Positions 16,332-48,100 are shown, counted from the whole stretch's first letter. The stretch: DNA of 56,184 nucleotides, filler included, from Dugesia japonica (GCA_001938525.1; 4 parts of 4 records of this genome joined end to end with filler, not necessarily neighbours in it), one strand, 5' to 3'. Notes: generated from the letters alone by a model not told the origin. Numbers and translations: made by a program.

Positions 16332-16380
16332 AAAATAGGTATAGTAGCAAATGTAAGAGAAGATGTCTAATTTTTATAAA

Positions 16381-18754: not shown

Positions 18755-18773
18755 TTTTTAATTTTTAAAAATA

Positions 18774-20309: not shown

Positions 20310-20468
20310 AAAAATTATTTTGGCGGGAAATTTAAAAAAATATTTTTTTGGCGGGAAATTTAAAAAAAATTATTTTGGCGGAAAATTAAAAAAAAAATTT
20401 TTTGGCGAGAAATTCAAAAAAAATTATTTTGGCTAGAAATTTAAAAAAAAAATTTTTTGGCGGGAAAT
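20310..20468. repeat. Six approximately 27-28 bp tandem repeats with core TTTTGGCGGGAAA (E2F/DP consensus)
   Basis: Cores GGCGGGAAA (x3), GGCGGAAAA, GGCGAGAAA and GGCTAGAAA, separated by A/T tracts. Confidence 0.85.
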
Positions 20469-20779
20469 TGTAAAAAATGAAATTTTTCATTGAAACGGGG
20501 GGAAATCTTTTATTACAATTAAATTTAATTTAATTAAATTAAATAAAATTTAACTAAATTATTTTTTATATAAGAGATATTTTGCAAGGGACGAAGAAGT
20601 CTCTATATTTTACATGGTATGAGGGAGTCTAAAATTCATAAGCGCATGATTTTCAGTGTATGTGTGTTACATCATAGTTGCATTTATTAATAAAAATTCA
20701 TAGTCGTGTGATTTTTAATGTTTTTTAACTTTTAATTATAAACAATATACTAAATTATGAATAAATTAAAGTAAACAAG

Positions 20780-21420
20780 ATGGAAACATTAAGAAATGAC
20801 GCAGTCTATCAAATTGTTGAACCTAGTGGTAGCGGGAAAACTTTGTTTGTATGTCAATTATTGAAATCAAAGTTATTCAAGTCTAATTTTAAAAAAATAT
20901 ACTGGCATAGGGGTGCAGATGACGAGCATGGTCTGACTAAATCTTAATTTTGTAATATTAAAATGAAAATCATAAATGGTTTTGATTCTAATTGGAGCAA
21001 AAGATTAAGACCAGGTGATATTATTGTTGTTGATGATCTGTATCAGGTAGCAAATAAAGAAAAAGATTTCAATAATTTATTCACAAAAATATCTAGACAT
21101 TGTAATGTAACTGTAATATTTATTACATAAAATCTGTTTCATCAAGGAGGTAGTCATAGAACCCGTAATTTAAATGTGCAATATTTGGTTTTATTCAAAA
21201 ATCCTAGAGATCAAACTGTTGTTGATTTTCTAGCAAGACAAGCATATACAAATAACAGACAATTTCTTATTGAATCATTTCAAGATGCAACAGACACCAC
21301 ATGGATATCTATTTCTTAACTTTACACAACAATGTCCAGATGATTTAGGGTGAGAACAGATATATTCAACGCTAATGGTATCACAGTATATAAACAAAAT
21401 AGGTAATTTTTATATAATTA
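20780..21420 (+). pseudogene. Polinton B packaging ATPase
   Basis: Walker A 'EPSGSGKT' (G to E), Walker B 'IIVVDDL', 'LFTKISRH', 'YLVLFKNPRD'; stops and frameshifts. Confidence 0.9.
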
Positions 21421-22239
21421 TATAAAAGGGCAAAGTTTAAGAAAATTATAGTTGATTCAATTACTGATGGTGATGTTGTAAAACAAAGAAAAAGGTTGGT
21501 TTTGAAGAAACAAAACAAATCAATCTTATAAGAAAAAGTCTCAAAAGAAACAATCTCATAAGAAAACGAATTCAAAATAAGAAAAAACAATTGAATAAGT
21601 TTTAAAAACTTTCAAAACGTGATGGAAAGAAACTGGAAATGTTGAATGGAAGATGGAAATCACTTAGGAAACCATATGCAAATAAGAATAATGAATTGAA
21701 TAAGTTTAACAAACTTGCAAAAAGTACTGGAAAGAAACTAGAATTAATGAATGGAAAATGGATATCATTATAAACAATTAACTGGTATGTCTTTGTTATT
21801 GAAATAAAATGAAATTAGAANNNNNNNNNNNNNNNNNNNNNNNNNNNNNNNNNNNNNNNNNNNNNNNNNNNNNNNNNNNNNNNNNNNNNNNNNNNNNNNN
21901 NNNNNNNNNNNNNNNNNNNNNNNNNNNNNNNNNNNNNNNNNNNNNNNNNNNNNNNNNNNNNNNNNNNNNNNNNNNNNNNNNNNNNNNNNNNNNNNNNNNN
22001 NNNNNNNNNNAAAAACCTTACTATCGCTTGTAAATACTAAAAATAGGAGATTGATGAGGAAAGTAATACGAAATAATCAAGGTGTTGGATTTATAGCAGC
22101 ATTACTATCAATTGCATTAGCTGCATTAGGATTAACTCATTTCAAATAAACAATTGAAGCTTTTGATCAATATATTAATAAACAATGGGCGGATTNCAAT
22201 CATTACCTAATTTTGACTTGAAATTTGATCGAATTGTTG

Positions 22240-23270
22240 TAATGGGGAAGCTAAAGACAATATGGACGGATCCAAAAACCCAGCAGGTTTTCGAGGCGTA
22301 GACAAATTGATGAAAACATCTCAAAAACGAAAAGAAAGACAAAAAAGTGGTTATCGGGACAACTAGCGTACAGCCTGAACAAATCGATGTTGAAAAGATT
22401 TCCAACAAGAGCATATAAAACATATGGTATTGAGGATTTATGGCAAATGGATCTAATGNNNNNNNNNNNNNNNNNNNNNNNNNNNNNNNNNNNNNNNNNN
22501 NNNNNNNNNNNNNNNNNNNNNNNNNNNNNNNNNNNNNNNNNNNNNNNNNNNNNNNNNNNNNNNNNNNNNNNNNNNNNNNNNNNNNNNNNNNNNATGGACA
22601 TCCAGATAATTTGCAAACGGATTTGGGTAAGGAATTTTACAATTCCAAGGTGAAACAACTTTTAAATCATCTATCCATAAACCATTACAGTGTATGCTCT
22701 CAGTATAAAGCTGCACGTGTAGAGAGATTTAATCGCACATTGAGAGATGCATTGAAAAAGTACTTTGTACATGTTGGTAATAAGTCTTGGATAAATNNNN
22801 NNNNNNNNNTTATTCATAGTTATAATCATTCTGGTCATAAGGGATTAAATAGAGCATGGCCGGTTGATGTAAGTAAAAACAATCAATTAAAGTTATGGTT
22901 ATCACGTAAATATTCAAAAGCAAATCAAAAACCAAAGTATAAAGTTAGTGATCATGTGAGAATTTCAAAGATATCAGCTTCACCATTTAACGAGAATTTC
23001 AATAGTAATTGGAGTGATGAAGTGTTTCAAATATCAAAAATAAACACTAAACAAAATCCGGTCANNNNNNNNNNNNNNNNNNNNNNNNNNNNNNNNNNNN
23101 NNNNNNNNNNNNNNNNNNNNNNNNNNNNNNNNNNNNNNNNNNNNNNNNNNNNNNNNNNNNNNNNNNNNNNNNNNNNNNNNNNNNNNNNNNNNNNNNNNNN
23201 NNNNNNNNNNNNNNNNNNNNNNNNNNNNNNNNNNNNNNNNNNNNNNNNNNNNNNNNNNNNNNNNNNTTAG
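22240..23270 (+). pseudogene. Polinton B integrase (rve)
   Basis: 'DPKNPAGFRGVDKL', 'GIEDLWQMDL', 'LQTDLGKEF', 'KAARVERFNRTL', 'NWSDEVFQI'; partly N. Confidence 0.92.
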
Positions 23271-24282
23271 ATGAAATCGAGTAATTTCTATACGCTTTTA
23301 CCTAGTAATAGTTGTCCACTTATTCATCCTGAGAATAATGATAGTAAATTCATTGTTGAGCTACAAAATCCAATTTATATGGATGGTAGTTGGGAAGTTG
23401 CAATGATGGATTTCACCTTTCTATATTCACCATTTCTGGTATATTGCAAGTCGAAAATAGAATATGACTGCAAAAAATATATTGAATGAAATAACTGTAA
23501 CAATAAATAACAAGGGAAAAACGATTAGTGTTGATCAAAATAAAAATTTTGAAATATTTGAAAATAATCTCATAAGATTTTATTGTGAATTTACATATGT
23601 TGTCATATTTGAAGATGCACATATCGCATACTCATTTGGATTAGGATTTAAATCTAACAAATTATCACAGAAATATGGTCATATCTATACAAACTTTACA
23701 AATGATGACACAGTAAAAAAACAAAAATTAAAAGAGCTTATACAATGGTGAATTATCATACTTTTAAGTTTAATAATGAAATATACATATCAGAATTGGA
23801 ACAATTAAATAAATATTTGACTGAAAATTGTACTCAAATATTTAAGAAATGCCTTGTAAATGCGGATAAATATTTTGAATTCGAGCTACAAGATGACGTC
23901 AAAAAAGTTGTATTTGATAATGTCTTGACAAGAACATTGGGATTAGACAAACAACATTATTCTCNNNNNNNNNNNNNNNNNNNNNNNNNNNNNNNNNNNN
24001 NNNNNTCGAAAATAATGAAATTACATCAGCAAATGTTCATCTATAGTAGTCTTGTTGAACCTATAATTGTAGGAGATGTTAGTATACCTTTATTGAAAGC
24101 AATATGGGTAGAAAAGCATGAAACTGATGAAATAGTGCAAATAATAGTCAAGAATCCAATGTATTTACCTATTGCAACATCATGTATAAATAATATAAAA
24201 ATTAATATACGCGATGATAACGGAAAATTAGTCAAGTTTCCAAAAGATTCAAAAAATACATTTAACTTTACATTTTAGAAAA
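23271..24282 (+). pseudogene. Polinton B minor capsid (penton-like) protein, frameshifted
   Basis: N-terminal 'FYTLLPSNS...PEN..SKFIVELQNPI.MDGSWEVAM' and C-terminal 'MFIYSSLVEPIIVGDVSIPLL...NPMYLP...IKINIRD'. Confidence 0.85.
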
Positions 24283-24286
24283 ACTA

Positions 24287-24730
24287 ATGTCTAATCCTGA
24301 TATTATATCATTGTATAGTACTAGTCAAGCAGGTGGAGAATTACCGTACTTTCTTGGAAAACAATATGGATCTGGTTGGTTACGGACAAAAGGTAGATTT
24401 GCTTTACCGATTCTTAAACGTATTGGTTCTTTTGGTATGAAAACAGCTCAGGATGTAATAGCCAATGATGGAAAAATACTACCCACATTGAAATCAAATG
24501 CATTAGCTGAGCTTGGGAATGTTATGTCATCATTACCTAGCGGAGTAATCAGTATGATTCCAAAAGTAGCAAACATATTACTGCAAAGTATAACTAATAA
24601 AATGCCATCTGAAATAACTAATATGCTATCAAATCAAGTCACGACACCACAAAATAGAAAACGTAAGAAATCTCATGGATCACGTATAAACAAACGAATA
24701 AGAGGACATAGAACAATATTTGAAAAATGA
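24287..24730 (+). CDS. Polinton B core-like protein (Gly motif and basic tail)
   Basis: 'QAGGELPYFLGKQYGSGW...RFALPILKRIG' with an Arg/Lys-rich C-terminus ending 'TIF'; lies between the minor and major capsid genes as in Mavericks. Confidence 0.8.
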   Translation: MSNPDIISLYSTSQAGGELPYFLGKQYGSGWLRTKGRFALPILKRIGSFGMKTAQDVIANDGKILPTLKSNALAELGNVMSSLPSGVISMIPKVANILLQSITNKMPSEITNMLSNQVTTPQNRKRKKSHGSRINKRIRGHRTIFEK

Positions 24731-24875
24731 TTTGCGGTAAAACTGAATCATCTATTTTTGATAGACCATCTCCTCAAGCTGTAATTAGAAATGGGACTTT
24801 CGAAGATGTCTTTCCTATGAATTCAATTTCTGAATCACAAAGCGACGTAGAGTTTTTTATAAATGGATCTCAAAC
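24727..24875 (+). CDS. Polinton B major capsid protein N-terminus (cut by gap)
   Basis: 'CGKTESSIFDRPSPQAVIRNGTFEDVFPMNSI...VEFFING' matches the Maverick MCP N-terminal pattern C.KSELDLF..PPTQ...EF.I.G. Confidence 0.85.
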
Positions 24876-27246
24876 NNNNNNNNNNNNNNNNNNNNNNNNN
24901 NNNNNNNNNNNNNNNNNNNTTAATTAATTAANNNNNNNNNNNNNNNNNNNNNNNNNNNNNNNNNNNNNNNNNNNNGTAACAACGAATTTATAATTAAAAT
25001 TTAAAACAATTATAGCACTGATGTGTTCTTAACAATGAGGAATTTCATACTAAAGTTAAGGTTCGAGATCTAGATCAACTTGTCTGGCCTTTACCAGCAG
25101 AAAAGGTTCAACGAAACAGCGGAGGTCAGTCTCATCCGGATGTAGGATAAGAGTCGAAGTCAAAAGGTGTCCGNTTAGCTGTTACTTGNGGGATCGTTCG
25201 CTTTCTTGTCNGATCAAATTTTTNACCTCACTTAAGCTGCCAGTCATATGTCTAAATGAGAATGGGTTAACATAAGTTAACTTGAGATAACCCTTAAGTA
25301 ATAGAGGTTAGAACTGCTTGGTCAAGGATATCCATACCAGTTTCATTATACTCGGGTTTACTTAGTAAGTTATTGTTGCGGGCCGTAACAGGGGTCTAAA
25401 CTGTGGAAAGAATGATCGACGCTAGTGTGCAAATCATGAATGCTAATGTCGGTGAACCTTATCATTCTGGTGAATCACGGGAATCATTACTAGGTCACAC
25501 AATAACCTGTCATAAAAATATGATGGTAACAACCCCTGGGTTCATAAAATTAACAACTGATATCATCATGCCAGCCTAATAGTAATCATAGTATACGTGG
25601 ACGTTCTAGAAATGTGTTATTTTACTACGAATAGAAAAATACACGGACTTATGTCGTGATTTGATAAAAATAAAACAATGACATTAACACGGCCATGAAC
25701 AAAAATAACCAGTGTGATAAACAACATAGCGATAATGGAATAGTGGTCGGAATGGAATTAATAATAATGGAANNNNNNNNNNNNNNNNNNNNNNNNNATA
25801 ATAACAGTCAGAATGATAATAATAATAGTAAGTATAATATCATCCGTATCCCAAGAATAATAGTAAATAGTAATTACAATATTAATAATAATAATTATGA
25901 TAGCAGTCATAATAACTCAGAAATAATAATACTAACTATAATAGTGAAAATAGTACTAATATTTATAATAATAGTAATAATACTAATGAAAATATTAGTG
26001 ATTTTAATAATCAAGAATCATCACATCAACCCTAAGGGACATTAATACTTGTGCAAGTATGATAACAATATGATATGACAGATATTAATAGCCGTAGTCT
26101 TATTAATAAAGCCTAGTGGTGACAGCGTTAATTGATGATAAAAATCCTGTTCATGCCAATGCATTACTTGTAATCATTTACTATAGATAATGATACTAAA
26201 CTAGATGTTCGTGACTCTAATATTTAACAACCACTATGATAACAATAGTAAAAATTTTAATGTGGTAATAATCATAATGATGATGTTCATCGTTTCAGAG
26301 GACATTCCCACGTTTACCCAAAAAAGGAATGAAATTTAGTAGACTACGTATCCCAAAATGGGGTGCTTTGAGGATTATACTGAACAATGAAATTGCCGTA
26401 ACGTAATCATACTTAAATTTAACAATTACCCATGCATTTGCAGAAAAATCAAAATTTGACGTCAAGCATTTTTATTAATATTAAACGAACTCAAGCTGAG
26501 AATGTTAATTGTAAATTAAGAAAAATTCCTATCAATGCTTCCGCGCACATTAATCATATCATAATAATACTTCTGAAATGTAATAAAATCAAAGTCTCGT
26601 AGAACCCTAATGGTCGGTTCTCGTTGTGGCCTGATTCGGATATGAGAAGAAAGGACAACATATACTTGAATTATACTGATATCAGGAGTAGTCGACATAA
26701 TTCCATACCTAGTATTTAGAAGAAATTTTCATTTGAATAAAGTTTTAATTTATGACATGCATATCTAGGTTAGATCCACTACTAACGGAATCTTAATAAG
26801 GTAAGTGAAATAATTGTTGACTGACGTGTATTTTATGCTATCATCAACTGAGGTCATCATTTTCTAAGGAGTGACTCATTGGTCTACTACTCGCAGGCAC
26901 ATCTACTATCTACTTAGCTGGTGTAGTAAATCCGGATTATTGATTTGGTGAGTTTAGTGTTACACAAGGAAAATTCACGTTATCAGTGTTGTAATTAACA
27001 TCAAGTGTGGTTATTAACTGTTTTAAAAACTGTTTAACAGGCAACGCGAGCAATAGTGTGGCTGCCACTAAGTAAGCAAATTGCCAATTTAGAAATTGTT
27101 GTCTAAATTAGTTATTTTTATAAACTTGATTTACCTTATCAAATATAAATATACATTTTTATTTTTTAACAATTAATTAAACACATAATAACAACACAAT
27201 TAAAACACAATTAAAACCAATTTCTTACTAGTAAAATTTAGGATTC

Positions 27247-28216
27247 TGTAACAGGTTTTCCGAAGTGACAAAATCAGGATTCAAATTAGAGTTCGTGAAT
27301 GATTCCTGTTTTTATTTTTAACAATTAACTCCAGTGAGGTTATACGATTTCTATTTATCTTGATCTTTTCCAATTAATACTAGGATTTCTCCTTGAACTT
27401 AACAGTATATACTCCAATAGTTAAAAAGTAGTCAATAGTTTTTAACTAGTTGATTTAAAAATAGTAGATGGGTTTTCCAACACTTAAATTCTATGAAAAT
27501 TGCTGATTTTTTTAACTTAATTTTTTGGGCGTTTTATACTATTTCAGATACAACTCGGGATCATCTCCATTGGCTTTCTATTTTTATTTTTGCTTTGGCC
27601 TCTCCGATTCTTGTCATGTCTATTACTCTAAAAATTTTCGAGATTTTTAGCTGCTTCATTGGTGCCTATTTTTAGGGTACCTCGTGTTTTCCATGCCTTT
27701 GTTTTTTCTTTATTTTCTGATCTGTAATTGGTTGAATCTCCAAAACATTTTCTTGACCCTTTTGATGTTGGTAGCTTTTTCATTTTGAGAAATTTAACCG
27801 CACCGAATAATTTTGCGTCGGGATTTTCTTATTAGATTTTTCTGAAATCTTCCAGAGCAAAGATTTCTACAAAAACTGATTTTCATTCAATTAATCTTCT
27901 TTTTCGGAGTAAATTAAATAATTTTTTCTTGTTAATTAATTATTATTTTTAACGATAATTTTCTTGTTTTTTCTAATAAATTATATTTTTCTTTAATTAT
28001 TGAAATTGATTCAAGCCAATATTTTATCCACCCGGTATTTTCTTTCTACATTTGGTATTTTCTTCTGACTGTTTTATAGATATAATCATTATAGGTTTAC
28101 CCAAATAATAAATATTCAAAATTAGTTTTTTTCCGGCCACATTCTTCACTTTATTATTTCCGATTAAAGACCCTTGGTTCTCATTTCCTTTTCCAATCGG
28201 GTGTTTTACCCCAACA
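27247..28216 (-). repeat. LTR-like interspersed repeat
   Basis: Minus strand starts TGTTGGGGTAAAACACCCGATTGG and is colinear with 40804-41167; the opposite end is tentatively TGTTACA. No TSD confirmed. Confidence 0.55.
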
Positions 28217-28495
28217 AATTTCTCCCTGTTTTGTTGAAATTCCGTCCGGAATTTGTCATTGCTTATCACCGCTGCAGAATCCCTTAACCTTATATAAAAA
28301 CAGATTATGAGAAAATAATTATTTATTAATAATCTCACCTAATAGGAATTGAGATATCTAAATATTAATATTTAAATAATTGCATTTCATAATTATTTAT
28401 CTTATGAAATATAGTTTGTAGTAGTAAAATAAAAATGTCTAACAATATGAATTCTGATTTACAAAATTAATTAACAATTGAAGATCTACCTAACA

Positions 28496-28508
28496 TGGTG
28501 GCAGTGGT
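28496..28508 (+). promoter_or_regulatory. Primer binding site, tRNA-Leu-like
   Basis: TGGTGGCAGTGGT immediately after the LTR-terminal CA; close to the complement of the tRNA-Leu 3' end (TGGTGGCAGCGGT). Confidence 0.7.
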
Positions 28509-28545
28509 AAATATCGATTCTATTACTGAGAGGTTATCACCAAAG

Positions 28546-29518
28546 ATGTTCTGCAGAGGAGATAATTTTGAGAAATTCATCAAGCGATGTGAATTGTATT
28601 TTGAAGCTAAAAACATCACTCATGAGAAAGATTTGTTGGAAGAATATGTAAAGAAGTTTTAAAAAATTGAAGGTTTTCAGGCTCGTTTACGTATGGCATT
28701 TGAGAAAGAGAAAGATGCTATCAAATATTTTCAAAATTTGATTAACTATAAGCGTGGAAATGAAGAGATTCAAGTTTTTTTTAAAAATGTACAAGATTTA
28801 GTGGAAAGATTATTTACAAATAAAGTTTTTAATAAGGAAAAAATGGTTGGAAAGATGCTAGTATATTGTTCAGATAATAAAAAGTTGAAAAAGAAGTGAC
28901 TTCGCGGAAACGAGAGAATATAGAAGAAATTGAAAAAACAATGACGTTAGCAGATCGAGTAGAGAAAAACCGAGATTGAGTTGATGCCGTTAGAAGTTAC
29001 GCGAGAGTTACAAATCGAAATTATCAGAAACCGGTAAATCATACAGTAAATAGCCATGTGGAACAAAGAAAGGAAAAACAAAATATCGAATGTTGGTCAT
29101 GTCATATGATCGGTCATCGGCAAGTTGTCCAACAAAAAAAGTGGTAGAGTGCTGGATTTGTCATAAAATAGGACATATAAGTCGAGATTGTCCGAACAAA
29201 AAACCAAAAAAATGTTTTGGTTGTGCAAAAGTTGGCCATATTAGAAGGTTATGTCAAGAAGTGAAGTGTAAACGATGTGATAATGGTGGACATAAAGCAG
29301 AGGAGTGTTACTCAAGTTTGAAAGCGAAAAGAACAAGTGAGAAATTTATGACTGAAGAAAGATCAAGAAACCGATATAATCGAGTACATGTGATTAAAGA
29401 TGAAGATGTTAGTACAAACGATGGATATGAGAAAGTATATGAAAGTGATTCTAAAAGGCAGTACTCAAAGTGCAGGGCTACACTAGTAAAGGAGTTGGTT
29501 CGAGCCATCCATTGTTAA
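28546..29518 (+). pseudogene. Gypsy gag with three intact and one degenerate CCHC zinc knuckles
   Basis: CWICHKIGHISRDC, CFGCAKVGHIRRLC, CKRCDNGGHKAEEC, plus a frameshifted CWSCHMIGH knuckle upstream. Confidence 0.85.
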
Positions 29519-30380
29519 ATAAAGTTAGTAATTATCATCAAGGAGTTGAAAAGTGGGATGATATAGGAAAAGTTACAGAAAAAGTTTCCAGATTCTTAAA
29601 GAGGGAAAATTTTGCGGATGATAGAAAAGTTGAAATGGTTAGAACAGTTGAAGCAGAAAAGAAAACAAATATTTCGTACCATAAATTGCAAGGCAGATCA
29701 AGTGTGACAGTATCAATTCAAGGAAATAAAGTCGAATGTCTATTAGATACAGGGAGTCGAATTAACGTGATGAATTTGAGTTGTTTTAATAAATTACGAG
29801 AAGCAAATTTAGAAATGAGTGATGAAAGATTGCGTACACTTGAAATTGTTGGGAAAGTTAGAACTGGAGTGATAATTGATGAAGTTTGCAAAGAGATTAC
29901 TTTCTTAGTTGCTNAAAGAGTAACACCAGATCTGATANGAGGAATAGATATGCAGAGAAATTTTGGATATCAGCTTATGCAAAAGATCTATAGCAAAATG
30001 GATGAAAAAGTGGAAAATTACATTAGTAATATTGAAGCGAAATTCGGAAGACAAATTAAAAAAGGAGAGCTATTGAGAAGAGCCTTAAATATTGTGAAGA
30101 TTAAAGAGGATCAACGGTTATTAAAAATAATTGAAAGTAAAGAAAATGCTTTTATAGCAGATAAATTGGATGTAGGACGCACACATCTGACAAGACACAA
30201 AATAATCAAAACTGGTGAACCAATCAATCAAAACCGTACAGACAACCAATGAATTTAGAATCTAAAATTGAAGAAGCTATCCAAAACCTTTTTGAGAATA
30301 GTATAATCCGGAAATGCAACTCCGTTTGGAATACCCCATTGATCTGTGTTTGGGAAAAAGAAAAGAAGGACATAAGAATG
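29470..30380 (+). pseudogene. Gypsy pol fragment: aspartic protease and RT N-terminus
   Basis: 'VECLLDTGSRIN', 'LIxGID', 'DVGRTHLTRHKI'. Confidence 0.88.
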
Positions 30381-30467
30381 TTAACTTCTGTCAGTACTCA
30401 TGGTTCTTATCGTGTTTTTTTTGTCCTCAACCACTATTCTATGTTCTGTTAGTTTGGCCTCATTTCC

Positions 30468-30707
30468 TCAACATTCCTGACTTCTTATCTCTCTTAGGGT
30501 TAGTAAAATGGTGGCTAGTATGATTTTTCTGCTAGGAATTTTGTTCCGAGGTGTGATTTGTATTAGTTGAATTGCCAAGACCGGCATTGATAACCATAAT
30601 AAAATTATTCCTGTGATTCCGTATATTATCCTTGATGTTGGATAGATACTTGAATGGCTGCACAACAGAGTGACATTCATAGTCTCGATTTTACGTTGCC
30701 GAAGCAT
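30468..30707 (-). CDS. Small ORF with a predicted transmembrane helix, downstream of the integrase-RING region
   Basis: Hydrophobic stretch 'IIYGITGIILLWLSMPVLAI'; no family recognised. Confidence 0.3.
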   Translation of the reverse strand: MLRQRKIETMNVTLLCSHSSIYPTSRIIYGITGIILLWLSMPVLAIQLIQITPRNKIPSRKIILATILLTLREIRSQEC

Positions 30708-31249
30708 TTGATTGTCTGAACAAAAGTATAGAGTTTTAATACCTTGAGATGCAGTAGCTTATCTATTATTAGTTATAGTCATAGTCTGTTGTTACTGTAA
30801 AGGAACATTATGAGAGATAGGTGTGTCTGTCATTTTAGATATACGCGTTTTACCCGACCACCTTAGTTTCTTGGTGGGTTATGAGTTATTTAGTGACTTG
30901 GTACTTTCCTCGGCTTTTACTTTTTGCTTTCCTAACTGGGTTTGGAAATCCTGATACAAGGGCTGATTGTCTTTTAACTTCTTTGCTTTCCTCTGATTGT
31001 CAACATAGTCCAAGGCTGTATTTTTCACCCTTCTGGTTATCTTCTGTAATTCTGTCTTGGTTTTCTCCTCATTTGCTGGTTGCACGACAGGTTTTGATTT
31101 CTGGTCTTTATCTTTTTCTGCTAATTCTCCCTCCCCGTTTTCTTCAGACTCAGCGTCCTCGCTGATAATTCTTTTACGTAGTAATGATTCGAACCCGCTA
31201 CCTGGTGAAGGATCAGCTGACTGTGACCATGATACAATCCAATCTCATA

Positions 31250-32040
31250 CCAGTAATATGAGGTGGAAGTTTTTGATAGGTCTTGTCAGTGTTTCGCTAC
31301 AAACACTGGTACAACGTTCGCATAACGCGCTTACCGTGTCTTGCGATAACGGTGCTTGAATTGATAGCTCGTGGTGCGTTTTCTTGCTGTATTTTGTACT
31401 TAAGTCATCCTGTCGCTATAACCAAGTTCTTTGAGCAGAGACAGATTTTAATGCTAATTTCAAATTGGTTTGGATTTTTCTTACACATGTGAGACAGCTT
31501 TCTTCGACCAATGTTGGTGAGATAGGGAATTTCACCTGCGTGGGGTGAATACAACTACTGTCCGCCATTGGCACATATATCCCTCCAGGTATTATGGGGT
31601 ACAATGTTGTGGTATCCAGCTCTTTAACGCGCTGACTTAACTGACCCAGTGCAAATACTGGTACTGATGCTTTACCGAATATCATCATAGCTTGTTGCGA
31701 TCGTAATGGGTAACTATGTAAGATAGTGGACTTCATAATTTTCAGATTTCCGTGGTCTATCCGGCCGCCTGGGTTCTGTAATAGCTAATTTAATAATTAC
31801 GGTCGAAGCAGGTTCATCTGTTGCTGCAGCCTTTTTACATAGGTAACGTGGTAGATCTTTGGCTTTTCCAGAAGGTTTTCTTTCTTTTGAACCTTCACGT
31901 TAGTCTCAGTTACTTCGATTACCTCATATGGTCCTTGTCATGGTCGTTTCAATTTAGATGTCGTGCCAACGGAGATGTCCGGCAGATTATCAGCACCATA
32001 TCTTCTTTTTTAAACGAATGTTCTACTGTGGTTTTATCGT
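31250..32040 (-). pseudogene. Gypsy/Ginger-type integrase C-terminus (GPY/F) with AT-hook-like motif and RING-like finger, decayed
   Basis: 'FKKEDMVL...SKLKRP*QGPYEVIEV...IYHVTYVK', 'PRRPDRPRK', 'HSYPLRS', then across frameshifts 'CLTC...ICLC...G*L...LCERC...PIKNFHLILLV'. Confidence 0.6.
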
Positions 32041-32046
32041 GAAAAT

Positions 32047-32505
32047 CCGTGGTTCCCAAACTCTTTTAACCCACAGACCCCTTTTCATAGTCAAAACTTT
32101 TCCATGAACCCTGGGTGAAAAACTACATAAATGCATAATAGAAAAATTAAATATTTAACTTTGATGTCTTGAATGGTAAATGATGACGTAAAAATAAAAT
32201 ATTAATAAAATATTGTGTTGAAGAAGTATTTGTTGAAATTATAACTTTTGTTTTAAAATACAAAAACAATAATGACTTGGATTACACTGATGGAATGTTA
32301 TGATTGTATTTATGTCTGACTCAATATTTGTGAGTAGCAACCACAAGTCCCCACGAGTACTAATTTCTAGTCGGTTTCTTTTTATTGTGACGAAGCTCGT
32401 AAGGGTACTGAATTCACGTTCTACCAAAAAAGAAAACGGAAAAGTAATCAACAGCTTTTGTACAATTTCTCATAATGCTGGATATAAAATTGGTATTTCA
32501 TAAAT
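32047..32505 (-). mobile_element. hAT (Buster/Charlie) 3' end with transposase dimerisation-domain remnant
   Basis: Terminus CCGTGGTTCCCAAAC; 'FPFSFLVEREFS...KRNRLEI..GDLWLLLTNIESDI...HQCNPSH'. Confidence 0.85.
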
Positions 32506-32515
32506 AAGATAAGGC

Positions 32516-32657
32516 TTCGATCAAAACAAAACAAAATTTATTTGTAAAAAAAAGTTCAAATTTTCGACAATAGTCTTCTTCTTTGTTCCTGAAGAAGACT
32601 ATTGTCGAAAATTTGAACTTTTTTTTTACAAATAAATTTTGTTTTGTTTTGATCGAA
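32516..32657. repeat. Near-perfect long hairpin (about 66-bp arms, 9-nt loop)
   Basis: Arms 32516-32581 and 32591-32657 are reverse complements apart from one homopolymer indel; runs into an N gap. Confidence 0.95.
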
Positions 32658-32708
32658 NNNNNNNNNNNNNNNNNNNNNNNNNNNNNNNNNNNNNNNNNNN
32701 NNNNNNNT

Positions 32709-35150
32709 CTGTTGGATTTTCCATCTCTAATGAATGGTTCTGATACATTAAATGATCCATTAACGATGATGGAAATTCCTTTGCAATTATGCTCAGTATT
32801 GGCGACAATGACTGTTCCTCCAATACATCTTCTTCGTCTAAATCTACTTTACTGGCGTCATATTTGATACTTCGTACTAGCTCCTTTCTTGTCGTAGGAG
32901 AGTATCTTGTGATTTGGAGTTCATTGNCACTATCCGATAATTTNTATGCTGATGGTGAACCGAATATTTCAAGTTGCTGCTATAGGGGTTTTCTTCGTCT
33001 CTCGAGACGTTTCTGTACCTTCTGATTGATCAGTTCTAGGTCTTAATATCTGGCTAGCAGCTGGTTGTGTACGTTGTTTAAATGCTTTTAATTTGTTCGA
33101 GGTTTCTCCCATTACTGGCCGAGTTTTTCACCTGCTTTAAACGGATCCGAGTCCTACCAAATGAGTGTACATCCGGGTTCTGGAAAAACCTACAGCGTAT
33201 TACTCCGGATTAAATCTATCTTCATTAACCTGATTGGGGTGGTTTCTTCTAGCTCTCCTCCTTTGTCCAACAATTTGTAGGGCGGTTTATATGGTAATAT
33301 TTCTCGTATATGCTTTACCACACCATAGACTGGTATGAATATCGGGGTCTTTTCCCCTTCGAGATCAATTATTCTAAATTTGATTTGCAGTGGGGAAGGT
33401 TGTTCCATCTCCGCCCGTCGTCTTTTACCCAAAATTTTAATGAATTGGATCGGATCCCATACATGTTTTTTTAGAGTGCTTGAATCAGTCTCCGCAATTT
33501 TCTCAAGTCTTCTACTGCTAGATTTTGTTGTAAAGCTACTTTACATCTCCTTATTATTTCTGGTTTGACTAGTTTGTCTTCGACTAATAATTTACACAGC
33601 TCTGGTAAATTATCCTCTGGCTTCTCGTCCTTCACTGGTGTGTTGGTTAGAGCTGCCACCATTTCTACCCGTTGTTTTCCTTGTTCTTGTTTGGTGAGTC
33701 TTTCTTTCTCAAATATTATTGGGTGTATTTTTTCAACATAATATTCCTCTATTTCTTGGGCTTTCCTTTTCCAAAATTCTTCAGGAACACGTGGTCGTCT
33801 TCCCTTCTACTCTTTAACCGTTACATAAATTTTATGTTAGGTGCCTGACCTTATTCCGGAATGTTTTACCGGTAGTCTCATCCATTCCTCCACAATTTCT
33901 TGATTGTAAAATAGCACAATGTCATCTTCCTGTAAATATGGAAGTGTTACTGAATGCTCGTCATCCTGAGTTTTTTTTGTTTGTTCATATTTTTCATAAT
34001 TCTTTTTCGGAACTTGGACTATGTGTCATTCATGTGTATAGGAAACTGTACCTCGCTTTCATCGGGAAATGTAACGGTTACGTTCAAATCTTCATTGACT
34101 AGCATTTTGCTTGTATTGTATAATATACCATCGACTAAATTCTCAGGCATTTTTCTTAAAGCCCTTAACTGATTTAGTTGCAGGATTAAATGTTTGATTC
34201 TGCTATCTCTTAGTAATTCCAAATTTCAGGCTTTCCACACTGAGTCCATGGGTACTTTTCTTGAAGGTAGCAAAAATCACTAATTATCTTGGCTTTACGT
34301 TCAGTTTGTTTATAGCTAAAGGGGCCTGCGAATTCTTGCTTTCCAAATTAAGCATGTATTGGATATGTTGTTGAGCATATTTCAAATTACGATTTCGATT
34401 TCCACTCCAAGTTTGACTCCGTAATCATATAAATGATGTTTTCTAGCGTTAAAATCTACTATGGCGTTTGGGGTGCATACAAACTTATTTTTTAGACATG
34501 AATATACTGTTTATCTGATGGCCAATTCCAGGTCTTCTACCATTAATCCGGTGAGGATTAATTTCATATTTCCCTCAAGATTGTACATCCACACTTGATA
34601 GTCTGATATTCCCATGTTTGATATTACCCAATCATAATGTACCGGTAACCACTCTATCCATTCATTCTCGAAATTTGTTACCAATTTCATGACTTCTAAT
34701 AACTATACTAGTTGATTGGTTAACCTTAAATCTACCTCTTTCTTGAATGTGTAATGAAATTTTTGTGTGGTTGATAATATCTCATCGATTCGAGCCAAGG
34801 ACAATCGTGATGCTTCCTTTTGTTCTACATCAGGATAGTCCCTTAGTCTTACTTGTTTGAGCCTTTTGTTTTTGGTATTCGTGGGAATTTGTGGAAAATA
34901 TTTCCTTTAGAAATGTTTCTTCTAAATTATGATACAACTCGTCGGTATCCTCATCCTTGATTACTATCTGTGGTCTGTATATTAAACCCCAATTGATCAA
35001 ATTGATTAATGTTATTTCATGAGGCCATGCCCCATAATAAATTAGACTTTTGTCATCCGGGAGCATGTAAATTCCAATATTGCCAATCTGTAATCTAAAA
35101 TGGCGCCAATTGCCAGCCCATTGATATTGATCGTTGAACGGAGGTAATTT
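32709..35150 (-). pseudogene. Long decayed intronless ORF with two ubiquitin-like domains
   Basis: Largely continuous reading frame with scattered stops and frameshifts. Ubl-like segments at about 33815-34087 and 33184-33390 align by eye to ubiquitin. Confidence 0.55.
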
Positions 35151-35239
35151 AAAAAATGAATTTTTTGTTAATCCCTGAGGGCCGTTTATCCCCGGCCGAT
35201 ATACTTTTTAGCATCCACTCAGGTGGGACCCAAACAAAT

Positions 35240-35800
35240 TTTACGTTTTCATTAGTCTTTTGATTTGTCTTTTATATATTATTATTAATGTTATTAATGT
35301 CTGAGTTGCATCTAATGTTAATATTTTCCGGAGCGATTAATAGTGATGTTAATATTTCCCATGGGAAATTCACTTCAAAATTCGAAAATTTAAACACAAA
35401 ATAGGTTTTTCCCATCGATTTTATGTGAAAAATCCATAAAAATCATTTAATCCCTTAATTTAAATGAAAATCTCAAAACTTTGTAAATTTAAACAAATAA
35501 TGAAAATTTATTTATTTAAAGAAAAAATCATTAATCTCACTAAATTTTTAACCAAAACGTTAATTTCCTTTAATTTAAACAAAAAAACAAATGAACTTGA
35601 CCTTAAAAACCCTATGATGACCTCATCAGGACACATCGATGGCTCATCAAAAATCGAGGCCAGTTGACCTTAAAAATTTCGACCAATCAAAAAGGCTAGA
35701 AACGTGTGTACGACCTATCAAAACGCCTAAAATGGTGACCAATTAAAATTTTCTCCCCACGGTGTATAGTAGCCCCGTGCGCCACTATCCATCTACTACT
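35240..35800 (-). mobile_element. Polinton-like terminal region (5'-AGTAGTAGATGGATAGTGGCGCACGGG)
   Basis: About 24 nt nearly identical to the Polinton B terminus at 19348; internal blocks are shared with 44297-44750. Confidence 0.65.
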
Positions 35801-36184
35801 AACGTTTTTTTAGCAATTATCGATTAGTACAGTCAGCACATTAAAACAGCACCAAAATGTGAACCTACACTTTCCACATGCATAGATATCATACTTGATC
35901 CGGTCAAAACAAAAGCACACTGAAATTATAAAATTTTAAAAACTTATTTATTCAATTTAAAAAATTTTCCATCATGAAAACAACATTTTATATACCTTAT
36001 ATTTATATATCCGTTATCTGGTGACGAGGGTGTGGTACCGTGCACCAGTATCCACCTACTGATATCATTCAAAAATTAACCAATTTGAAACTATAAAACA
36101 TCATTTTAGTGATAAATAACTAATCATAAATCAAAAAAAAACAAAAAGACATTTTATTTGTCTATCTGGAACATTTTAATCTTG

Positions 36185-39100
36185 TCGAAATTCAAGCATT
36201 AAATAAATCATTATTAATATTAAAATCATAGACAAAAAATAAACGAAAATCAGAGATAATAATCCTATGAGTTCCAATTAAAAATTCATCGCTAATGATA
36301 AAATTAATTGGATTTGCACCTTGATATTCAATTGACTAAATATACTGACTAAAATTAAAAAACTAATATTTACGTACTTTGATAATGTAATCAAGCTTTG
36401 TTCGTAAATCAACAACATGCATTGAATTACCAATAATTTTTATAACTTTATAATAAAACAAGTACGAATATAAACGTACATATTTTAAAGGTAATAGTTT
36501 TTGACACATGTGACTACAATTTTTCTAAATTTTTATTTTAATTCATTATGCAAATAGCTTTCTTTGATAATAGGAAAATAAATAAAATACAATCTCTTAA
36601 TATTTATAATTAGAATCTTTCAAAAGCCATAAAATTACGGTTTTATGACAATATTTTCAGACAAAATATATTACAATTGTAATAATTAACTATTAATTTA
36701 AATATTAAGAAACTATTAATTAGACAAATTATATTAAAGAAAATACAAAAACACTATAATTGGTAGTACATTTTTGCGAACCTGATTTCATTATATTCGC
36801 TCAACAAGATGTTGATTTTCTATTTTCAAACATTGGTTTGCCGACAGAACATTTCAAGTAACATCAGAGATTTAATCAGTTATTTATCATACATTTATTA
36901 TGCAATAGTCAAAATGTTCAACATATTGCATTATCTAGTTATTTTCATTTTGGACAAAGTATGTGGAGAAAATTGCACACATCAGTAAAAGTAGCTATGT
37001 AAATAACAGAGAAGATGATGTCATGAAGGTGAAAAAGATGTTATTAATGTGTTTGAAAAACTTACCAACAGTGAGCCTTTCAAAAATGACCTAAATAATG
37101 TGGATTTCTTCGTAGATTATTTTAAGGACAATTATATCGGTCGTCTACTGTGTGAACGCAGAATGCAATCTCGATTTCCAATTAGCCTTTGGAATCAATA
37201 TGAACGTTTATTCAACGATTTTCTGAGAACCAACAACGTGGCAAAAGTATGGCACAATGCTTTCAACTCTATCATCAACATTTCACACGCTACGTGAAAT
37301 GTTATTTCATAAGACTGGTTCGAAAATTGCAACAACATACCTCAGTTATTCAGAGAAATCAAACTGAAACTGGTAGACGTATCGAGGAATAAATAATACT
37401 ATTAAAGCTTCGGTTTCTGGTTACAGTTAAAAGGTTCATTTGACATATTTTTCGGATTTTGAATATTAATGTGACATAGTTAAGTTTATTATTAGTTATA
37501 TTAACAGTTAATAATTATAATTAATCTTAATATATTTTGGCTAAATATATTGTTTCAGTATATTTTGTCCTACTACCAAAAATACACCGTTCATAAAAAA
37601 TTCTTAAGTTTATTTATTTCAAAATTTTAGTTTGCTAAACATATCAGGGATGTTCAATCTTCTGTACTTGCGAAGTACTTATTTTCTAAAACAAGTTCGT
37701 TTCTATCTGAGTATTCCGAAAGTAAACCCGTGTTTTCTCTAGGAAAATACAAAATATTTTGGAAAATCAAGTAGTTTAAATAATAAAATATTAACAGATC
37801 TTAGAAAGTTATGTAANNNNNNNNNNNNNNNNNNNNNNNNNNNNNNNNNNNNNNNNNNNNNNNNNNNNNNNNNNNNNNNNNNNNNNNNNNNNNNNNNNNN
37901 NNNNNNNNNNNNNNNNNNNNNNNNNNNNNNNNNNNNNAGTGCAAATATCAAATAAACAAATCAATACGGACAAGATAAATATAGTGGAAACAAGTTATCC
38001 ATTGCATTTAATATAAGCATGATAAGTAGAATTATATTTTGTGATTAAAATATGATTTATTAATTTTCAACCAACAATCAACTAAAAGTAATTATTCTAA
38101 GTACACGTAATTAATGGGAAAACTGCCTTGCGATTGTATGATTGAACAAACCTGATACAAAATAATTAAAATATCTTGACAGTTTTTTGTTAAAATGGTG
38201 CACGGTAAATTACACGATAATTTAAACTCATGAAATAAAGATAGGATTCAAAGCAATTTTAATAGATTTAATTAATCACCTATTATCAAAGAAATTACCT
38301 ATTCAATAAAATAATACATGTGAAAAAGATGGACTTCCCATAAAAAATTTTGAAAAATTTTTAATATCGCAATTTGAATAATCTTTTCTGATATAATATG
38401 CTACGGAATATAATAATTCTGCTTTTTTAATAGATAACTGAATATATTGATCAATATATGCTTTTAATATCGACTTTTGATTTTTCTTTGTAGCTAGAAT
38501 TTCACAGCATTCTAGATATCTGTAAATTGCACCACACCAATTGGAAGAACATTCCATTTTTGTCGCTTTTTCTGTACAAACTAAAGCTTCATTTATAAAG
38601 TTTAAATCGCATTCAGAAAACTGTTTTAAAATGAAATTGTTATCCATTATCAATAAATCTTTAAATCGATTATTCAAATAAATTTTAATATCAATTACTG
38701 ATTCTTTTAAAAAAGATTAAAGAAAGCAAATTCTTAAGATTTTTTTACCATTATATTTAGATTTTAATTCGTGATGGAACTCGTTTAGCTTTATACCGCC
38801 TTTCAAAAATAATTTAAAACATTTTTGGTTATACAGACATATGTTATTGCATATAAACTGAAGAAAATTTTCAGCAGATTTTCTTCTAAATTCAACAATA
38901 TTATCTTCAAATCTTTCTAAAAATCTACATTAAACTTTTAAGAAACAATGTTAAATTACTTAAATAATTGGGATTAATTAAAAAAGTACAGCATTTGGTA
39001 CCATATAATTTTGAATAAATGGTTTGTATGTTTAAACTAAGTTTAACGAATTCTTGATATCTCTTATAAATAATTACCTAAAATATTGTGGAATAAATCG

Positions 39101-40803: not shown

Positions 40804-41167
40804 TGTTGGGGTGAAACACCCGGTTGGTAAAGAAAAGTGAGAGCCAGGGGGGTTGAAAAGAAAATTGATTAGAAATACGTATCATTTGGCTAAAAATTAT
40901 AATACATAACCTAATAAAAAGATCAGCAAGAAAGGTAAACGGCAGAAAGAAAATATCAGATGAATGAATTCAACCACCACCTATGTCAATAATTAGAGAA
41001 AATTATAATTATTAATAATAAACAAGTAAATTATTATCAAAAATAATAATTTATTAACAGGAAAAATTAATTAAATTTTTGCAAAAAAAAGAAAATAATT
41101 GGCTGAAAAACAGTTTTTGTCAGATAACTCCACACTGGAAGGTCAGAAAAGATCCCAGTAAGAAAAA
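40804..41167 (+). repeat. LTR-like repeat start (copy of the 27247-28216 family), cut by gap
   Basis: TGTTGGGGTGAAACACCCGGTTGG..., colinear with the reverse complement of 27830-28216. Confidence 0.6.
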
Positions 41168-42189
41168 NNNNNNNNNNNNNNNNNNNNNNNNNNNNNNNNN
41201 NNNNNNNNNNNTTAATTAATTAANNNNNNNNNNNNNNNNNNNNNNNNNNNNNNNNNNNNNNNNNNNNTCTATTTTTTATTTTAATCAGTTAAATATGAAA
41301 ATTTTTATAAATGTTTATCAATTAAAATTGAAATTTTATTTTAAAAATAAATAATTTTATGGAAAGTGGCGGGTTCAAATGGGTGATTGGTACAATTGCT
41401 TTTCTCCCAGAAATAGTTAGACTAAAGATTTTGTTTATAAAGTTTTTAAACAATATTAAATAATTATTATTTTAATAATTAATAATAATTACTATTCCTA
41501 ATTAATAATTAATATTTTAATAATTTTAAACCCTATAGATTTAAAATCTTTAAAGTTTTTGACAAAAAATTTACAGTTTAGCTGTTATACTGTTTAGATA
41601 TTTACTAACTTCTTTGATTAAATATTCTGAAGATTTATTTGTAAAATGTTCAATTTAATTTGCAACAAAATCGCTTATTTTGTTAAATGACCTGGGCTGG
41701 CTTGTAGAAAAAATCTATTTTTATTTTTAAAAATTTTTTTTAAAAAAATATAAATTAATAGATGTCTAAATTCTTTTATCTAAATAAACAAATGCGTCGG
41801 TTATGTTTATTAGTGAAAATATCGGTATAAATATTTTTTTGTTTTCAGTTTTTTAACAAAGAAAAAAATGAAAGACATTTATTATTTGGATTCATTTTGG
41901 TAATGTGCCTCGGGGCTTATGAAATTATGTATGTAAACAGTAACAATGTCTAATTAAAGAAAAATTACGTAGAATAACGAATTTTTATTTATTAATTTTT
42001 AATGAATTATACCAACATAGATTATTCTTTAAGAACTTTCAAAATTTGGTTATTAAATCAAGGCTTTTTATTTAATTAATTTACTTAATTAAGGCTTACT
42101 TTATTCTAAAAATATTTAACGAACTATTGATTGCCTTGAAAATTGACTTTATCAGTGAAACTTTTTAATTTAAAGAATTTATCATTTAA

Positions 42190-44296: not shown

Positions 44297-44750
44297 AGTA
44301 GTAGATAGATAAAAGCGCATCGGATCAAAGATCTCCTCCTCGCCAGATAATAAGATTGAGTTTAGCCCATTACTTAACTGTGGTTTAAATTTATATAGTT
44401 TATTGTGTAATCGACATATGCTGATGACGTCATCATTATAATAATTATGTTATCATGTAGGAATTAAGTTTAAATTAAGTGAAATTAATGATTTTTCTTT
44501 AAATTAAGTAAAATTAACGACTTTCTTGGATCTTTCAAAATAAGTTCGGCCTATTTTTGTTTAAATGAACCAAAATTTTCAATTTTTTAAGTCGTTAAGT
44601 GAATTTCACCCGGCCAATATTAACATTAGAATTCTCCCCGGCCAATATTAGCATTAACATTAGCTTCTCTTTTGGATCATATTAACAATAATAATAATAA
44701 CAATAATTATTATTACTTACATTATATACAATTGAAATAAATTTGCTTGA
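44297..44750 (+). mobile_element. Isolated copy of the AGTAGT-terminal region family
   Basis: Starts AGTAGTAGATAGATA; shares the GATGA(C/G)GTCATCAT, TTTAAATTAA..GAAATTAA and CCGG..AATATTAACATT blocks with the reverse complement of 35240-35800. Confidence 0.6.
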
Positions 44751-45110: not shown

Positions 45111-48100
45111 CAGTGGCGTGGCTAGGTATGGTGAGTGTGTACGAGGTACAAAGGTCCATTCGACAAACCATAAAATTACAAAAAAATTTTAATTTTCTAA
45201 TTTAAAATTTTAAAATACTTTTTTTAAAAAAATATTCCTATTTTTTTAATCACCCTGTTTCCAACCAAACCAATCCAAATAAAATATGTAGGAAAATTTA
45301 CTCTGATAAGTTTTTACTTTAGAGGAAATACATATATAAAATGGGTATAAATTATTAGTCCACTGCCGTGTATAGAAAAGAATAAAATGCGACATTATAT
45401 TTTTTCCATACAAAAAAGTAATTATAACATATAAGTAATATGTTATATGATTCATGAAAGTCTCTTTAATTTACTGTTTTACAAAGTAAAGAATGAGACT
45501 TTTATATTTAGGTTTGTTTGGTTTTTTTTCGTTTTTCTTGTTGTATGATATGCCATATGCATATCATTCATATTGAAATAATAATAAATACGATATCAAT
45601 CATTCTTAACTTTGATGTCAATTCGATTTTAAAAATATAGTGTAATATTTAACGTTTTATACTTCTATACTTTTATTAAACTGTAAGTATTTGGAAAGTA
45701 TAACTATTTAATTAAAATTTAAATAAGGTAAAAANAATGAATGTCTTCAAAGTTTTTTTTCAAGTTACCGTCACCCTTTGACCCTCAAATTATAGTTAAT
45801 GTAATTGGAACCGAATACTTCTAAAAAAGTAAAAAGTGGGACCCAAAGAGTAAAATCAAAAAAGAAAAAGAGATTTTACTACAAAAATTACCGAAACTTG
45901 ATTCATTTCTGAAGAAAGACAGATAAAATATCCAGATCTTTAATACTCAACAGTCTGCAAATTCAAGTGAAAATGATGTTACTAAGATATCCATAAAGTA
46001 AAATGTAAGGCCCATAGTTGCAAATGAAAGAGATAAAAGCATTCAGCTCAACAATGAAACTGAACAGCCTGCTCAAAAAATCTCAACAAAATCAATGATA
46101 ACGATTTTGGTAAATATTTAAATCTGATTATATCTGATGGCGAAAAGCGTAAAATATTATGTAGTTCGCCATACTGACCAAAAGCACTGTTTCCTAAGGA
46201 CTCTAATAATAGAAGTGTCAACAAAATATTTATTATGCTAAATCTAAGTATGGTCCAGTTCCACGTTTATGGCTATGTTATTCAAAAATGTTGAATGCTG
46301 CTTATTGTCAGCCATATTGGCTGTTTTCAAATCAGATTGGAGGCATTTAAGTTACCGTATAAATTCCCATTGCTCATCAAAATTTCATACTGAGGCTTGT
46401 GCAGTTTATGAACTGAGGAAAAAAAATAAAACAGTTGACAAAAGTGATGAAGAGAAAGTCGGATATACAGCTTCATTTTGGAAAATGGTTTTAGAATGGT
46501 TATTTCGTATAACACTTATGCTTGCCAAAAATTGTTTGGCTTTTCGTGGTCATCGGAAAAAAATTTCAGATATTTATTAATGAAACGATTTTAGGATTTT
46601 TTCACTTGAAAAATCATTCTGTTACTGGAATGACCAACGAAGTTTTCCGTATACTGGATAGTTTGAACATTCCAATAGAAAAGCTTTACGATCAGGGGCA
46701 GGATGGTGCAAGTGAGTGGTGTTTACAATGGGGTACAATCAAAAATCAAAGAAATTCAACCCAATACCAAATATGTTTATAAGATAGCTTTTTTATATGA
46801 GAAAGGATATTGTACTACGCGGAAAGAATTGCTCGGAATTTACTACTTTTGTATTTATTTCAAACATTACTTATAAGGGAAGAGATTTATTCTCAGAACA
46901 GACCATAAAGCTGTCACTTTTATGCTAAATACCAAGAAACCGATCACATCACAATTTCAAACTTGGATTAATTATTTGAGTAGTCTAGCTGTAAAATTGG
47001 AATATAGAAAAGGATCGCTTCATACAAACGCGGATATGTTGTCAAAGAGTAAATGCGATACATGCGCCCGATTTCTAATGTCACATAAAGATCCCAAAGT
47101 GGAAAATTAAAACCAAGGATGTTAAATATCATAGATATTCAAGAAAAACAAGGCAATTTTGGTGAAAATGATGAAGGAATATGGATACATGCTCATAGGG
47201 TAGAATAAGTTATAATGAGGATACACCATATTTTGTGTCATGCTGGAACAGAAAAAGTAGCAGCGTATAAGAAGCATAAATATAAAGCGAAACATTTGTT
47301 GACTAAAGTACAAGGTTGTCTGTAAAGGTTGTCTGAAGCTGTATAACATGCCAGAAAGTTAAAATGTTGACAGCATAAACGAAGGAAGAAACGAAAGAGA
47401 CACAGCCTGACAAAATGTGTGAGTTGTTATTTATAGATGTGTGTGAACCACTGCCGGAGACAAGAGGTCGGAAAAATATATTTTCGGTATAATAGACCAA
47501 TGCAGTTAGTATATAGCCTTGATGACAATGACAAGACAAGATGATGAGACCATACGGAAAGCAATATTGTAGAAGTGGATATTAAAGTTCTGGTTACCGA
47601 GAGAAATTCGAGTTGATTGTTGAAGAGAATTGAATCTAAATAAATGATAGATTTTGCAATTGTACATGGAATCACCCTCAGGTTTTCGATTTCATATCAT
47701 TATAACACAGATGGGCAAGTTGAGAGACAGTTTAGAATTATGCGGGAAATGATAAATTCGACACTTAAAGAAAGGAAAACTTCAGATTGGGCTGATGTAT
47801 TGGCAGAGATAGAATTTACCTTAAATGCTACAAAACAGAAGACCATCAGGAAAAGCCCTGTTGAAATAGTACTTGGAAAGAGAATAAGCAGAGAAAAATG
47901 GTACAAAACCTATTCTCAAAAAGAGCACAAAGATCAAGATGAAGAGATATTGACCAAAAGAAAATTTAAGGTTGGTGATGAAGTCATTCGTGAAAGTTGA
48001 AACAAGAAACAAGAGCCAAGATCGTTAAGAAGGACCCTATAAGATCAAGAGGAAAGTTCACGAAAGACTCTACATTCTGGAAGATACAAACGGGAAAAGT

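Follow-up and report, generated by a model that had tools for sequence, protein, structure and literature searches.

Probable transposon debris in the Dugesia japonica genome, best read as a Polinton end with a broken accessory gene beside a separate Gypsy- or Ginger1-type integrase remnant

The planarian Dugesia japonica (GCA_001938525.1) carries a block of decayed transposon sequence at 30385..35800 (~5.4 kb) of the stretch of DNA analysed here, which is called the window and measures 56,184 nucleotides, filler included. The block consists of two decayed minus-strand coding arms and a non-coding middle. Its right half likely comprises a terminus and a broken accessory gene of a highly repeated Polinton/Maverick element, and its left half is likely the tail of a separate Gypsy- or Ginger1-type integrase gene. 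The block is probably transposon debris and not a single new element. A first-pass annotation had offered three readings, namely a single chimeric element with a module of ubiquitin-like (Ubl) domains and an E3 ligase, a Polinton accessory arm lying next to a separate retroelement, and an AGT-terminated element with long terminal repeats (LTRs). The second fits best, and we regard it as moderately probable if the retroelement is taken as a separate remnant of Gypsy/Ginger1 type beside the Polinton accessory arm.

The window as a whole is AT-rich animal DNA (GC content 0.28) dense in decayed transposons, with three Gypsy copies, two Polinton gene sets and several DNA-transposon fragments. The GC content is 0.40 in the left arm (30380-32120) and 0.37 in the right arm (32708-35210), compared with 0.24 in the right flank, so the block is indeed richer in GC than its host. 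The description of the block as coding entirely on the minus strand holds for both arms and not for the block throughout, because a hAT-like fragment in the middle reads on the plus strand.

The assignment of the right half begins with its terminus (Table 1). On the plus strand, 35795-35800 reads ACTACT, which is the (AGT)2 end motif by which Polinton/Maverick elements are recognized. A degenerate 24-mer matches both 35774-35797 on the minus strand and 19348-19371 on the plus strand, and was matched in none of 100 shuffles; the two sites agree with each other at 22 of 24 nt, which bears out the proposed likeness to the terminus of a second element, Polinton B. The end at 19348 starts at the stop codon of a gene resembling Polinton pX (Adeno_PX, E=7e-4) and is followed by ~1.4 kb of non-coding DNA and then by frames resembling ATPase, integrase and capsid genes (the first and last read by eye). 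With these frames behind it, a true Polinton end is the simplest reading. The junction of the block with its flank is real, since a single 1844-bp contig, which shows 0-1 differences in the two DNA runs, covers 35642-37000 and reaches 1.2 kb into the flank. Four AGTAG-type ends occur in the window, including those at 36063 (minus strand) and 44297 (plus strand). The former (36035-36063) has 8 mismatches in 30 nt and lies 260 bp beyond the block terminus in the same orientation; it possibly belongs to the element into which the right-arm element inserted.

Behind the terminus, 35605-35231 aligns with 44351-44749 at a score of 154, where the best of 30 shuffles reached 88. About 430 bp are common to the block end and the end at 44297, and divergence begins at the start of the open reading frame (ORF), as would be expected for a terminal inverted repeat (TIR). 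The AGTAGTAGAT end at 44297-44750 (plus strand) carries this subterminal sequence and similar motifs but not the ORF. Within the block, where the right arm is cut by an assembly gap, the terminus has no inverted partner. For a 6-bp target-site duplication (TSD), the right flank matched none of eight candidate left ends, the true other end not being located.

The right-arm family clearly exists in many distinct copies. Read contigs from two DNA runs (X1 and X4) were mapped to 32945-37000 at 80% likeness, and 1281 and 1401 contigs, respectively, were placed there, 200 and 213 of them at least 95% alike. The summed word depth, which does not equal copy number, reached ~24,500-26,900 at 34616 and ~22,000-23,000 in 35257-35392, against 9-13 (locus-specific contigs), and 36 and 39 contigs differ at 34616. 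In other contigs, different sequence links 35527-35702 to the terminal 28 nt; the contigs that represent other copies are short. A further run (organism B) held exact pieces at a depth of 2-3, which are likely carry-over and were not counted as independent. Among 26 of the 40 listed differences, 12 fall at third, 10 at first and 4 at second codon positions, a number too small for use. In one polyA RNA run, about a quarter of which was read, 114 reads were placed, 84 of them less than 90% alike. Their depth stayed below 1 over the right-arm ORF and peaked at 8.5 on the non-coding end, and no transcript of the ORF was found in this library.

The right-arm ORF is real though decayed: the cost of its path through stops and frameshifts is 22, whereas 40 shuffles gave 35 at the lowest, and the plus strand does no better than chance. 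Where two Ubl domains had been claimed, we find by eye three segments, each with a two-strand/helix start and a C-terminal pattern that we take to be ubiquitin-like. The sole Pfam support is a match of UCH_UBL1 to the first part of segment 2 (E=0.014, 15.9 bits versus a cut-off of 24). The isolated segments had no Pfam match, sequence searches of the PDB with them gave none, and none of the six pairs resembled each other beyond shuffles; MAFFT gave no alignment of the candidates. A single-sequence model of segment 1 has a mean predicted local distance difference test score (pLDDT) of 49 and the order beta-beta-alpha...beta, with no beta-grasp among the fold matches listed. The corresponding model of segment 3 has a pLDDT of 35 and matches eight chains, a PB1 and a Ubl domain included, at non-significant Z values of 2.0-2.4. 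Ubl domains in this ORF are plausible but unproven. The Atlas score for 33190-33540 is 0.76. For 34833-35207 (minus strand), the first Atlas match scores 0.95 and falls among unnamed phage and bacterial clusters, some with Glyco_transf_7C, with recognition below threshold; as a lead, the N-terminus of the right-arm protein is possibly glycosyltransferase-like.

The left arm is likewise coding in origin. Of the 533 codons in one minus-strand frame of 30400-32000, 9 are stops, where 500 shuffles never gave fewer than 21, and the path cost of the arm is 11 against a shuffle minimum of 17 (40 shuffles). A GPY motif is visible by eye in the translation of its integrase tail, and translations of both Polinton integrase tails in the window lack it, both as previously noted. 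The GPY/F motif is a hallmark of Gypsy/Ginger1-type integrases (Bao et al., 2010, PMC2836005; this and the other papers cited are represented here by the portions of their text that were consulted). The tail had no Pfam or PDB match and no significant likeness to the other Gypsy tails of the window. No inverted pair of the Ginger1 type (TGTNR) surrounds the left arm, and a TGTTA at 30379 falls inside the alignment of the host reverse transcriptase (RT).

Downstream of the tail, the in-frame extension contains a zinc cluster in place of the RING finger that had been reported. RING finger E3 ligases have eight Cys/His ligands in C3HC4 or C3H2C3 spacing. The open frame has one CxxC at 31496/31487 and another at 31322/31313, 55 codons apart with two His between them, and the best profile match is to zf-AD (E=0.019), below the cut-off. 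A Cys/His map of the three minus-strand frames gave no RING ligand pattern and profile searches gave no RING match; E3 ligase activity in the block is not indicated. The suggested transmembrane ORF corresponds to a hydrophobic stretch, whereas the AT-hook-like motif is present in imperfect form and in a different frame (ORF 31717-31899). No C-terminal OTU, Ulp1 or PHD domain was matched by Pfam on this decayed extension. A candidate retropepsin at 31419-31784 was rejected, as 414 of 1000 shuffles were equally good, and a MATH domain was dropped for want of a Pfam match.

Between the arms lie a foreign hAT-like insert, a hairpin and the gap, the latter two as described before. The 142-nt hairpin was equalled by none of 200 shuffles, is the only Rfam match, below threshold, and has its right edge exactly at the 50-N gap; it is either a foldback element or a contig-end artefact. 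An end motif at ~32048, which we take to be hAT/Charlie-like, sits where the integrase tail stops. The hAT fragment proposed earlier can be read by eye on the plus strand; no Pfam match was obtained for it, and no partner end or 8-bp duplication was found for the end motif.

Relatives of the block proteins were sought widely. No homologue was found for a 296-aa piece of the block among 318 candidates of 162-518 residues, nor for the 533-aa left arm among 7609 candidates of 293-933 residues, a range that does not cover longer proteins such as polyproteins. Sequence searches of the PDB with the block proteins gave nothing below E=0.4, PHROGs and NCBIfam gave sub-threshold noise only, and viral and metagenome scans with the block proteins or the terminus found no relative; three 17-mer matches in IMG/VR proved internal and unrelated. 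In this copy, minus-strand profile scans gave no match to Gag, RT, RNase H, MATH, BCL2 or BIR, and minus-strand tests for an integrase core and a protease were also negative. A candidate integrase core at 32750-33150 was rejected, with none of 27 comparisons reaching P<=0.02 while six control pairs were detected.

Table 1. Features of the block and of the adjoining Gypsy element, from the terminus leftward (positions in the window)
Feature	Position	Strand	Basis
Polinton-type end: (AGT)2 motif and ~20 conserved nt	35774..35800	-	22/24 nt match to 19348-19371; contig-spanned junction
Non-coding subterminal region, likely TIR; CRE-like motif, two AATATTARCAT motifs	35231..35773	-	alignment with 44351-44749
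Decayed long ORF, ~830 codons, several frame breaks and stops, likely accessory gene; enters gap	32708..35210	-	path cost, codon scan, repeated family
Candidate Ubl segment 1, most widely shared part of the ORF	34385..34603	-	by-eye pattern
Candidate Ubl segment 2, split by frame break	33810..34090	-	sub-threshold UCH_UBL1 on first part
Candidate Ubl segment 3	33178..33390	-	by-eye pattern
Assembly gap, shown as 50 N	32658..32707	.	sequence
Near-perfect hairpin, 66-bp arms	32516..32657	.	z=-17.7
AT-rich insert, likely hAT remnant	32048..32515	+	GC 0.27; by-eye reading
Gypsy/Ginger1-type integrase C-terminal tail, GPY motif, broken, no catalytic core	31810..32047	-	translation
Decayed in-frame extension, ~450 codons	30400..31810	-	low stop count
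Two-CxxC zinc cluster, ZAD-like	31313-31496	-	zf-AD E=0.019
Acidic/lysine-rich stretch	30882-31244	-	
Hydrophobic stretch	30471-30758	-	19 aa, Kyte-Doolittle mean 2.18
Host Gypsy gag-protease-RT start, cut at ~30387-30395	28490..30392	+	zf-CCHC E=2e-5, weak aspartic protease matches

How the two arms came to lie together is the point on which the readings differ. The alignment of the host Gypsy element with the RT of another Gypsy copy in the window ends at 30387, and the host element does not resume beyond 35800 (287 of 300 shuffles were equally good); the block is therefore not a clean single insertion. If the Polinton and Gypsy/Ginger1-type remnants are separate, the AGT repeat of an active ancestor would have primed protein-primed replication by 'jumping back', and the right end, to judge from its sequence, would have been joined to host DNA by a Polinton integrase acting in cis or in trans. 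The product of the accessory gene behind the terminus would have contained as many as three beta-grasp modules, and its predicted role is most likely that of a non-catalytic decoy or adaptor on the host ubiquitin/SUMO machinery. The left element may have been cut within its integrase gene by the hAT-like insertion, and nested insertion and deletion may have brought both pieces together.

Several observations weigh against a separate origin of the arms or against a Polinton origin of the right one. The likeness of the 35800 end to the Polinton B end is limited to ~32 nt, and the Ubl folds are unproven. Profile scans found none of the Polinton core genes (pPolB, integrase, ATPase, capsid) in the block, which is uninformative because the right-arm element is cut by the gap. 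Further, in dinucleotide composition each arm is nearest to the other, with a divergence of 4.9 where halves of single elements differ by 4.0-8.4 and the left arm differs from five other elements by 13.6-43.5. The right arm is also nearer to two Gypsy copies (5.2 and 6.0) than to Polinton A (26.2) or Polinton B (13.5). Both arms lie on the same strand and are similarly decayed, and the AGT motif at the start of the left junction is a loose mirror image of the terminus. This last likeness was matched by 178 of 18722 sampled positions (~1%), that is, at chance level, and the junction itself is uncertain. Finally, the read-contig mapping left out the left arm (single Ns at 32927 and 32944), so that the abundance data concern the right arm.

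An alternative that we consider unlikely derives both arms from a single giant Gypsy LTR retroelement of the Burro kind. It would have had AGT ends, an upstream accessory ORF with Ubl- or SUMO-like domains, a gag-pol middle since lost and an integrase tail with an extension, and would have moved by reverse transcription. Burro is present in thousands of copies, has a Ubi2/SUMO-like motif and may have an upstream accessory ORF (PMC6431247), and the Gypsy-type tail and the matched, retroelement-like composition of the arms would suit such an origin. The third reading of the first-pass annotation belongs here, and with it the degenerate tRNA-Gln-like primer-binding site (PBS). A PBS-like minus-strand 15-mer does exist at ~35218-35232, where the terminal homology ends. 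Its fit to tRNA-Gln, on what we take the tRNA sequence to be, requires insertions or deletions, and the window contains no tRNA gene for comparison. The 15-mer is preceded by TTTGTT and not by the CA or ACT of an LTR end, and no direct repeat was found between the two block ends that could represent an LTR pair; for an end of 570 bp the AGT-terminated LTR reading is weak. In addition, the block end matches one that leads into Polinton genes, and the missing MATH, BCL2, BIR, Gag and RT matches count against Burro, which is compared here by description.

We consider it quite improbable that the block is one undescribed, very abundant chimera with Polinton ends, a Gypsy/Ginger1-type GPY/F integrase with a zinc-cluster extension and a multi-Ubl gene, internally deleted and interrupted by the hAT-like insert. 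The common strand, the similar decay, the nearest-neighbour composition and the loosely mirrored left junction favour it, as does the occurrence of Ginger1 transposases with GPY/F and C-terminal extensions that act on ubiquitin or SUMO (PMC2836005). However, there is no TIR partner, TSD or integrase core, the left-end likeness is that expected by chance, the RING finger is unsupported, and Ginger1 ends are TGTNR and not AGT (PMC2836005). The single element with its own Ubl/E3 module, as first conceived, therefore finds no backing in a RING finger, in established Ubl folds or in a second terminus. Most doubtful is a non-autonomous, Polinton-dependent satellite family of ends and Ubl-like cargo, copied and inserted in trans by Polinton enzymes beside an unrelated left arm, which would suit a very highly repeated family (vertebrate Mavericks are mostly low-copy; PMC8097293), the restriction of shared sequence with Polinton B to the terminal ~30 nt and a composition unlike the Polinton A and B genes, but the truncation at the gap deprives the absent core genes of meaning and the density of AGT ends in the window makes a high Polinton copy number plausible.

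Other elements in the window provide the setting of the block. Polinton A (15999-19346) contains a double jelly-roll capsid fragment (E=5e-5), an adenovirus pX-like ORF (E=7e-4) and a phospholipase A2-like ORF (E=2e-5) directly before an rve integrase (E=1e-7). The end of Polinton B (19345-24870) begins at the stop of the Polinton A pX-like ORF, which suggests nested insertion. Ahead of the ATPase-like gene of Polinton B, 27-bp tandem repeats at 20305-20480 carry TTTGGCGG motifs, which are presumably E2F-like. Three decayed plus-strand copies of related Gypsy elements lie at 9540-12830, 28490-30390 and 46790-48150, and an inverted 186-bp repeat, 77% identical (27824-28006 and 40983-41166), likely represents two copies of a dispersed element. 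A likely host exon of a class A G-protein-coupled receptor was read by eye at 51600-52094 (minus strand). At 54349-54775 there is a 39-bp tandem array of ~9-11 copies, open in several frames, and a motif at ~54930, past this array, resembles the PBS-like sequence of the block. Identical N44-TTAATTAATTAA-N44 spacers at 15667-15766, 24876-24975 and 41168-41267 are an assembly linker artefact.

The literature searched held no report of the right-arm family or of Polinton ends combined with a GPY/F integrase. Linkage of the arms, if true, would unite ends and an integrase type not found together there and would bear on integrase exchange among Polintons, Ginger1 and LTR retroelements; the chimera in particular would stand as a living link among the integrases of Ginger1, Gypsy and Polintons. 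With Ginger1, the block shares a probable GPY/F integrase tail that continues into a long C-terminal extension (Bao et al., 2010). Ginger1 elements have TGTNR TIRs of 40-270 bp and a 4-bp TSD of CCGG or CCGT (PMC2836005), whereas the block has no such TIR pair or TSD, no core and no OTU, Ulp1 or PHD match. The planarian Burro/GYPSM1 polyproteins carry Ubl domains (Arkhipova and Yushenova, 2019, PMC6431247), and these elements resemble the block in their thousands of copies, accessory ORFs and Gypsy-type integrase, and also in ubiquitin-system domains, including a Ubi2/SUMO-like one, if the candidate segments of the block are such. By description, they differ in having an LTR pair, MATH, BCL2, BIR, env and RT, none of which was found in the block, and the end of the block is a Polinton match. 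Both Polintons and Burro are among the targets of planarian piRNAs (PMC8532177).

The closest comparison is with Polinton/Maverick elements, among which (AGT)2 is the commonest vertebrate end motif, serving jumping-back priming, and accessory ORFs flank the core, usually next after the end motif (Barreat and Katzourakis, 2021, PMC8097293). The block likewise has an (AGT)2 end, a non-coding terminus of several hundred bp and an adjoining accessory ORF; it differs in having no second end, 6-bp TSD or core gene linked to it in this copy, and in a composition unlike that of the two Polintons in the window. If the preferred reading of a Polinton arm beside a separate remnant is true, its significance is modest, namely an abundant Polinton-ended family with a database-orphan gene and possible tandem Ubl domains. 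Ubl domains also occur in the nematode Maverick cargo WASP/KRMA (Widen et al., bioRxiv 10.1101/2022.07.12.499685), so that Ubl domains, candidates in the block, would be common to both as parts of Maverick-carried genes. WASP/KRMA proteins combine one N-terminal Ubl domain with a protease or kinase, whereas the block has up to three internal candidates and no catalytic domain detected. The same reading would thus carry the association of Mavericks with Ubl cargo beyond nematodes, into another animal group.

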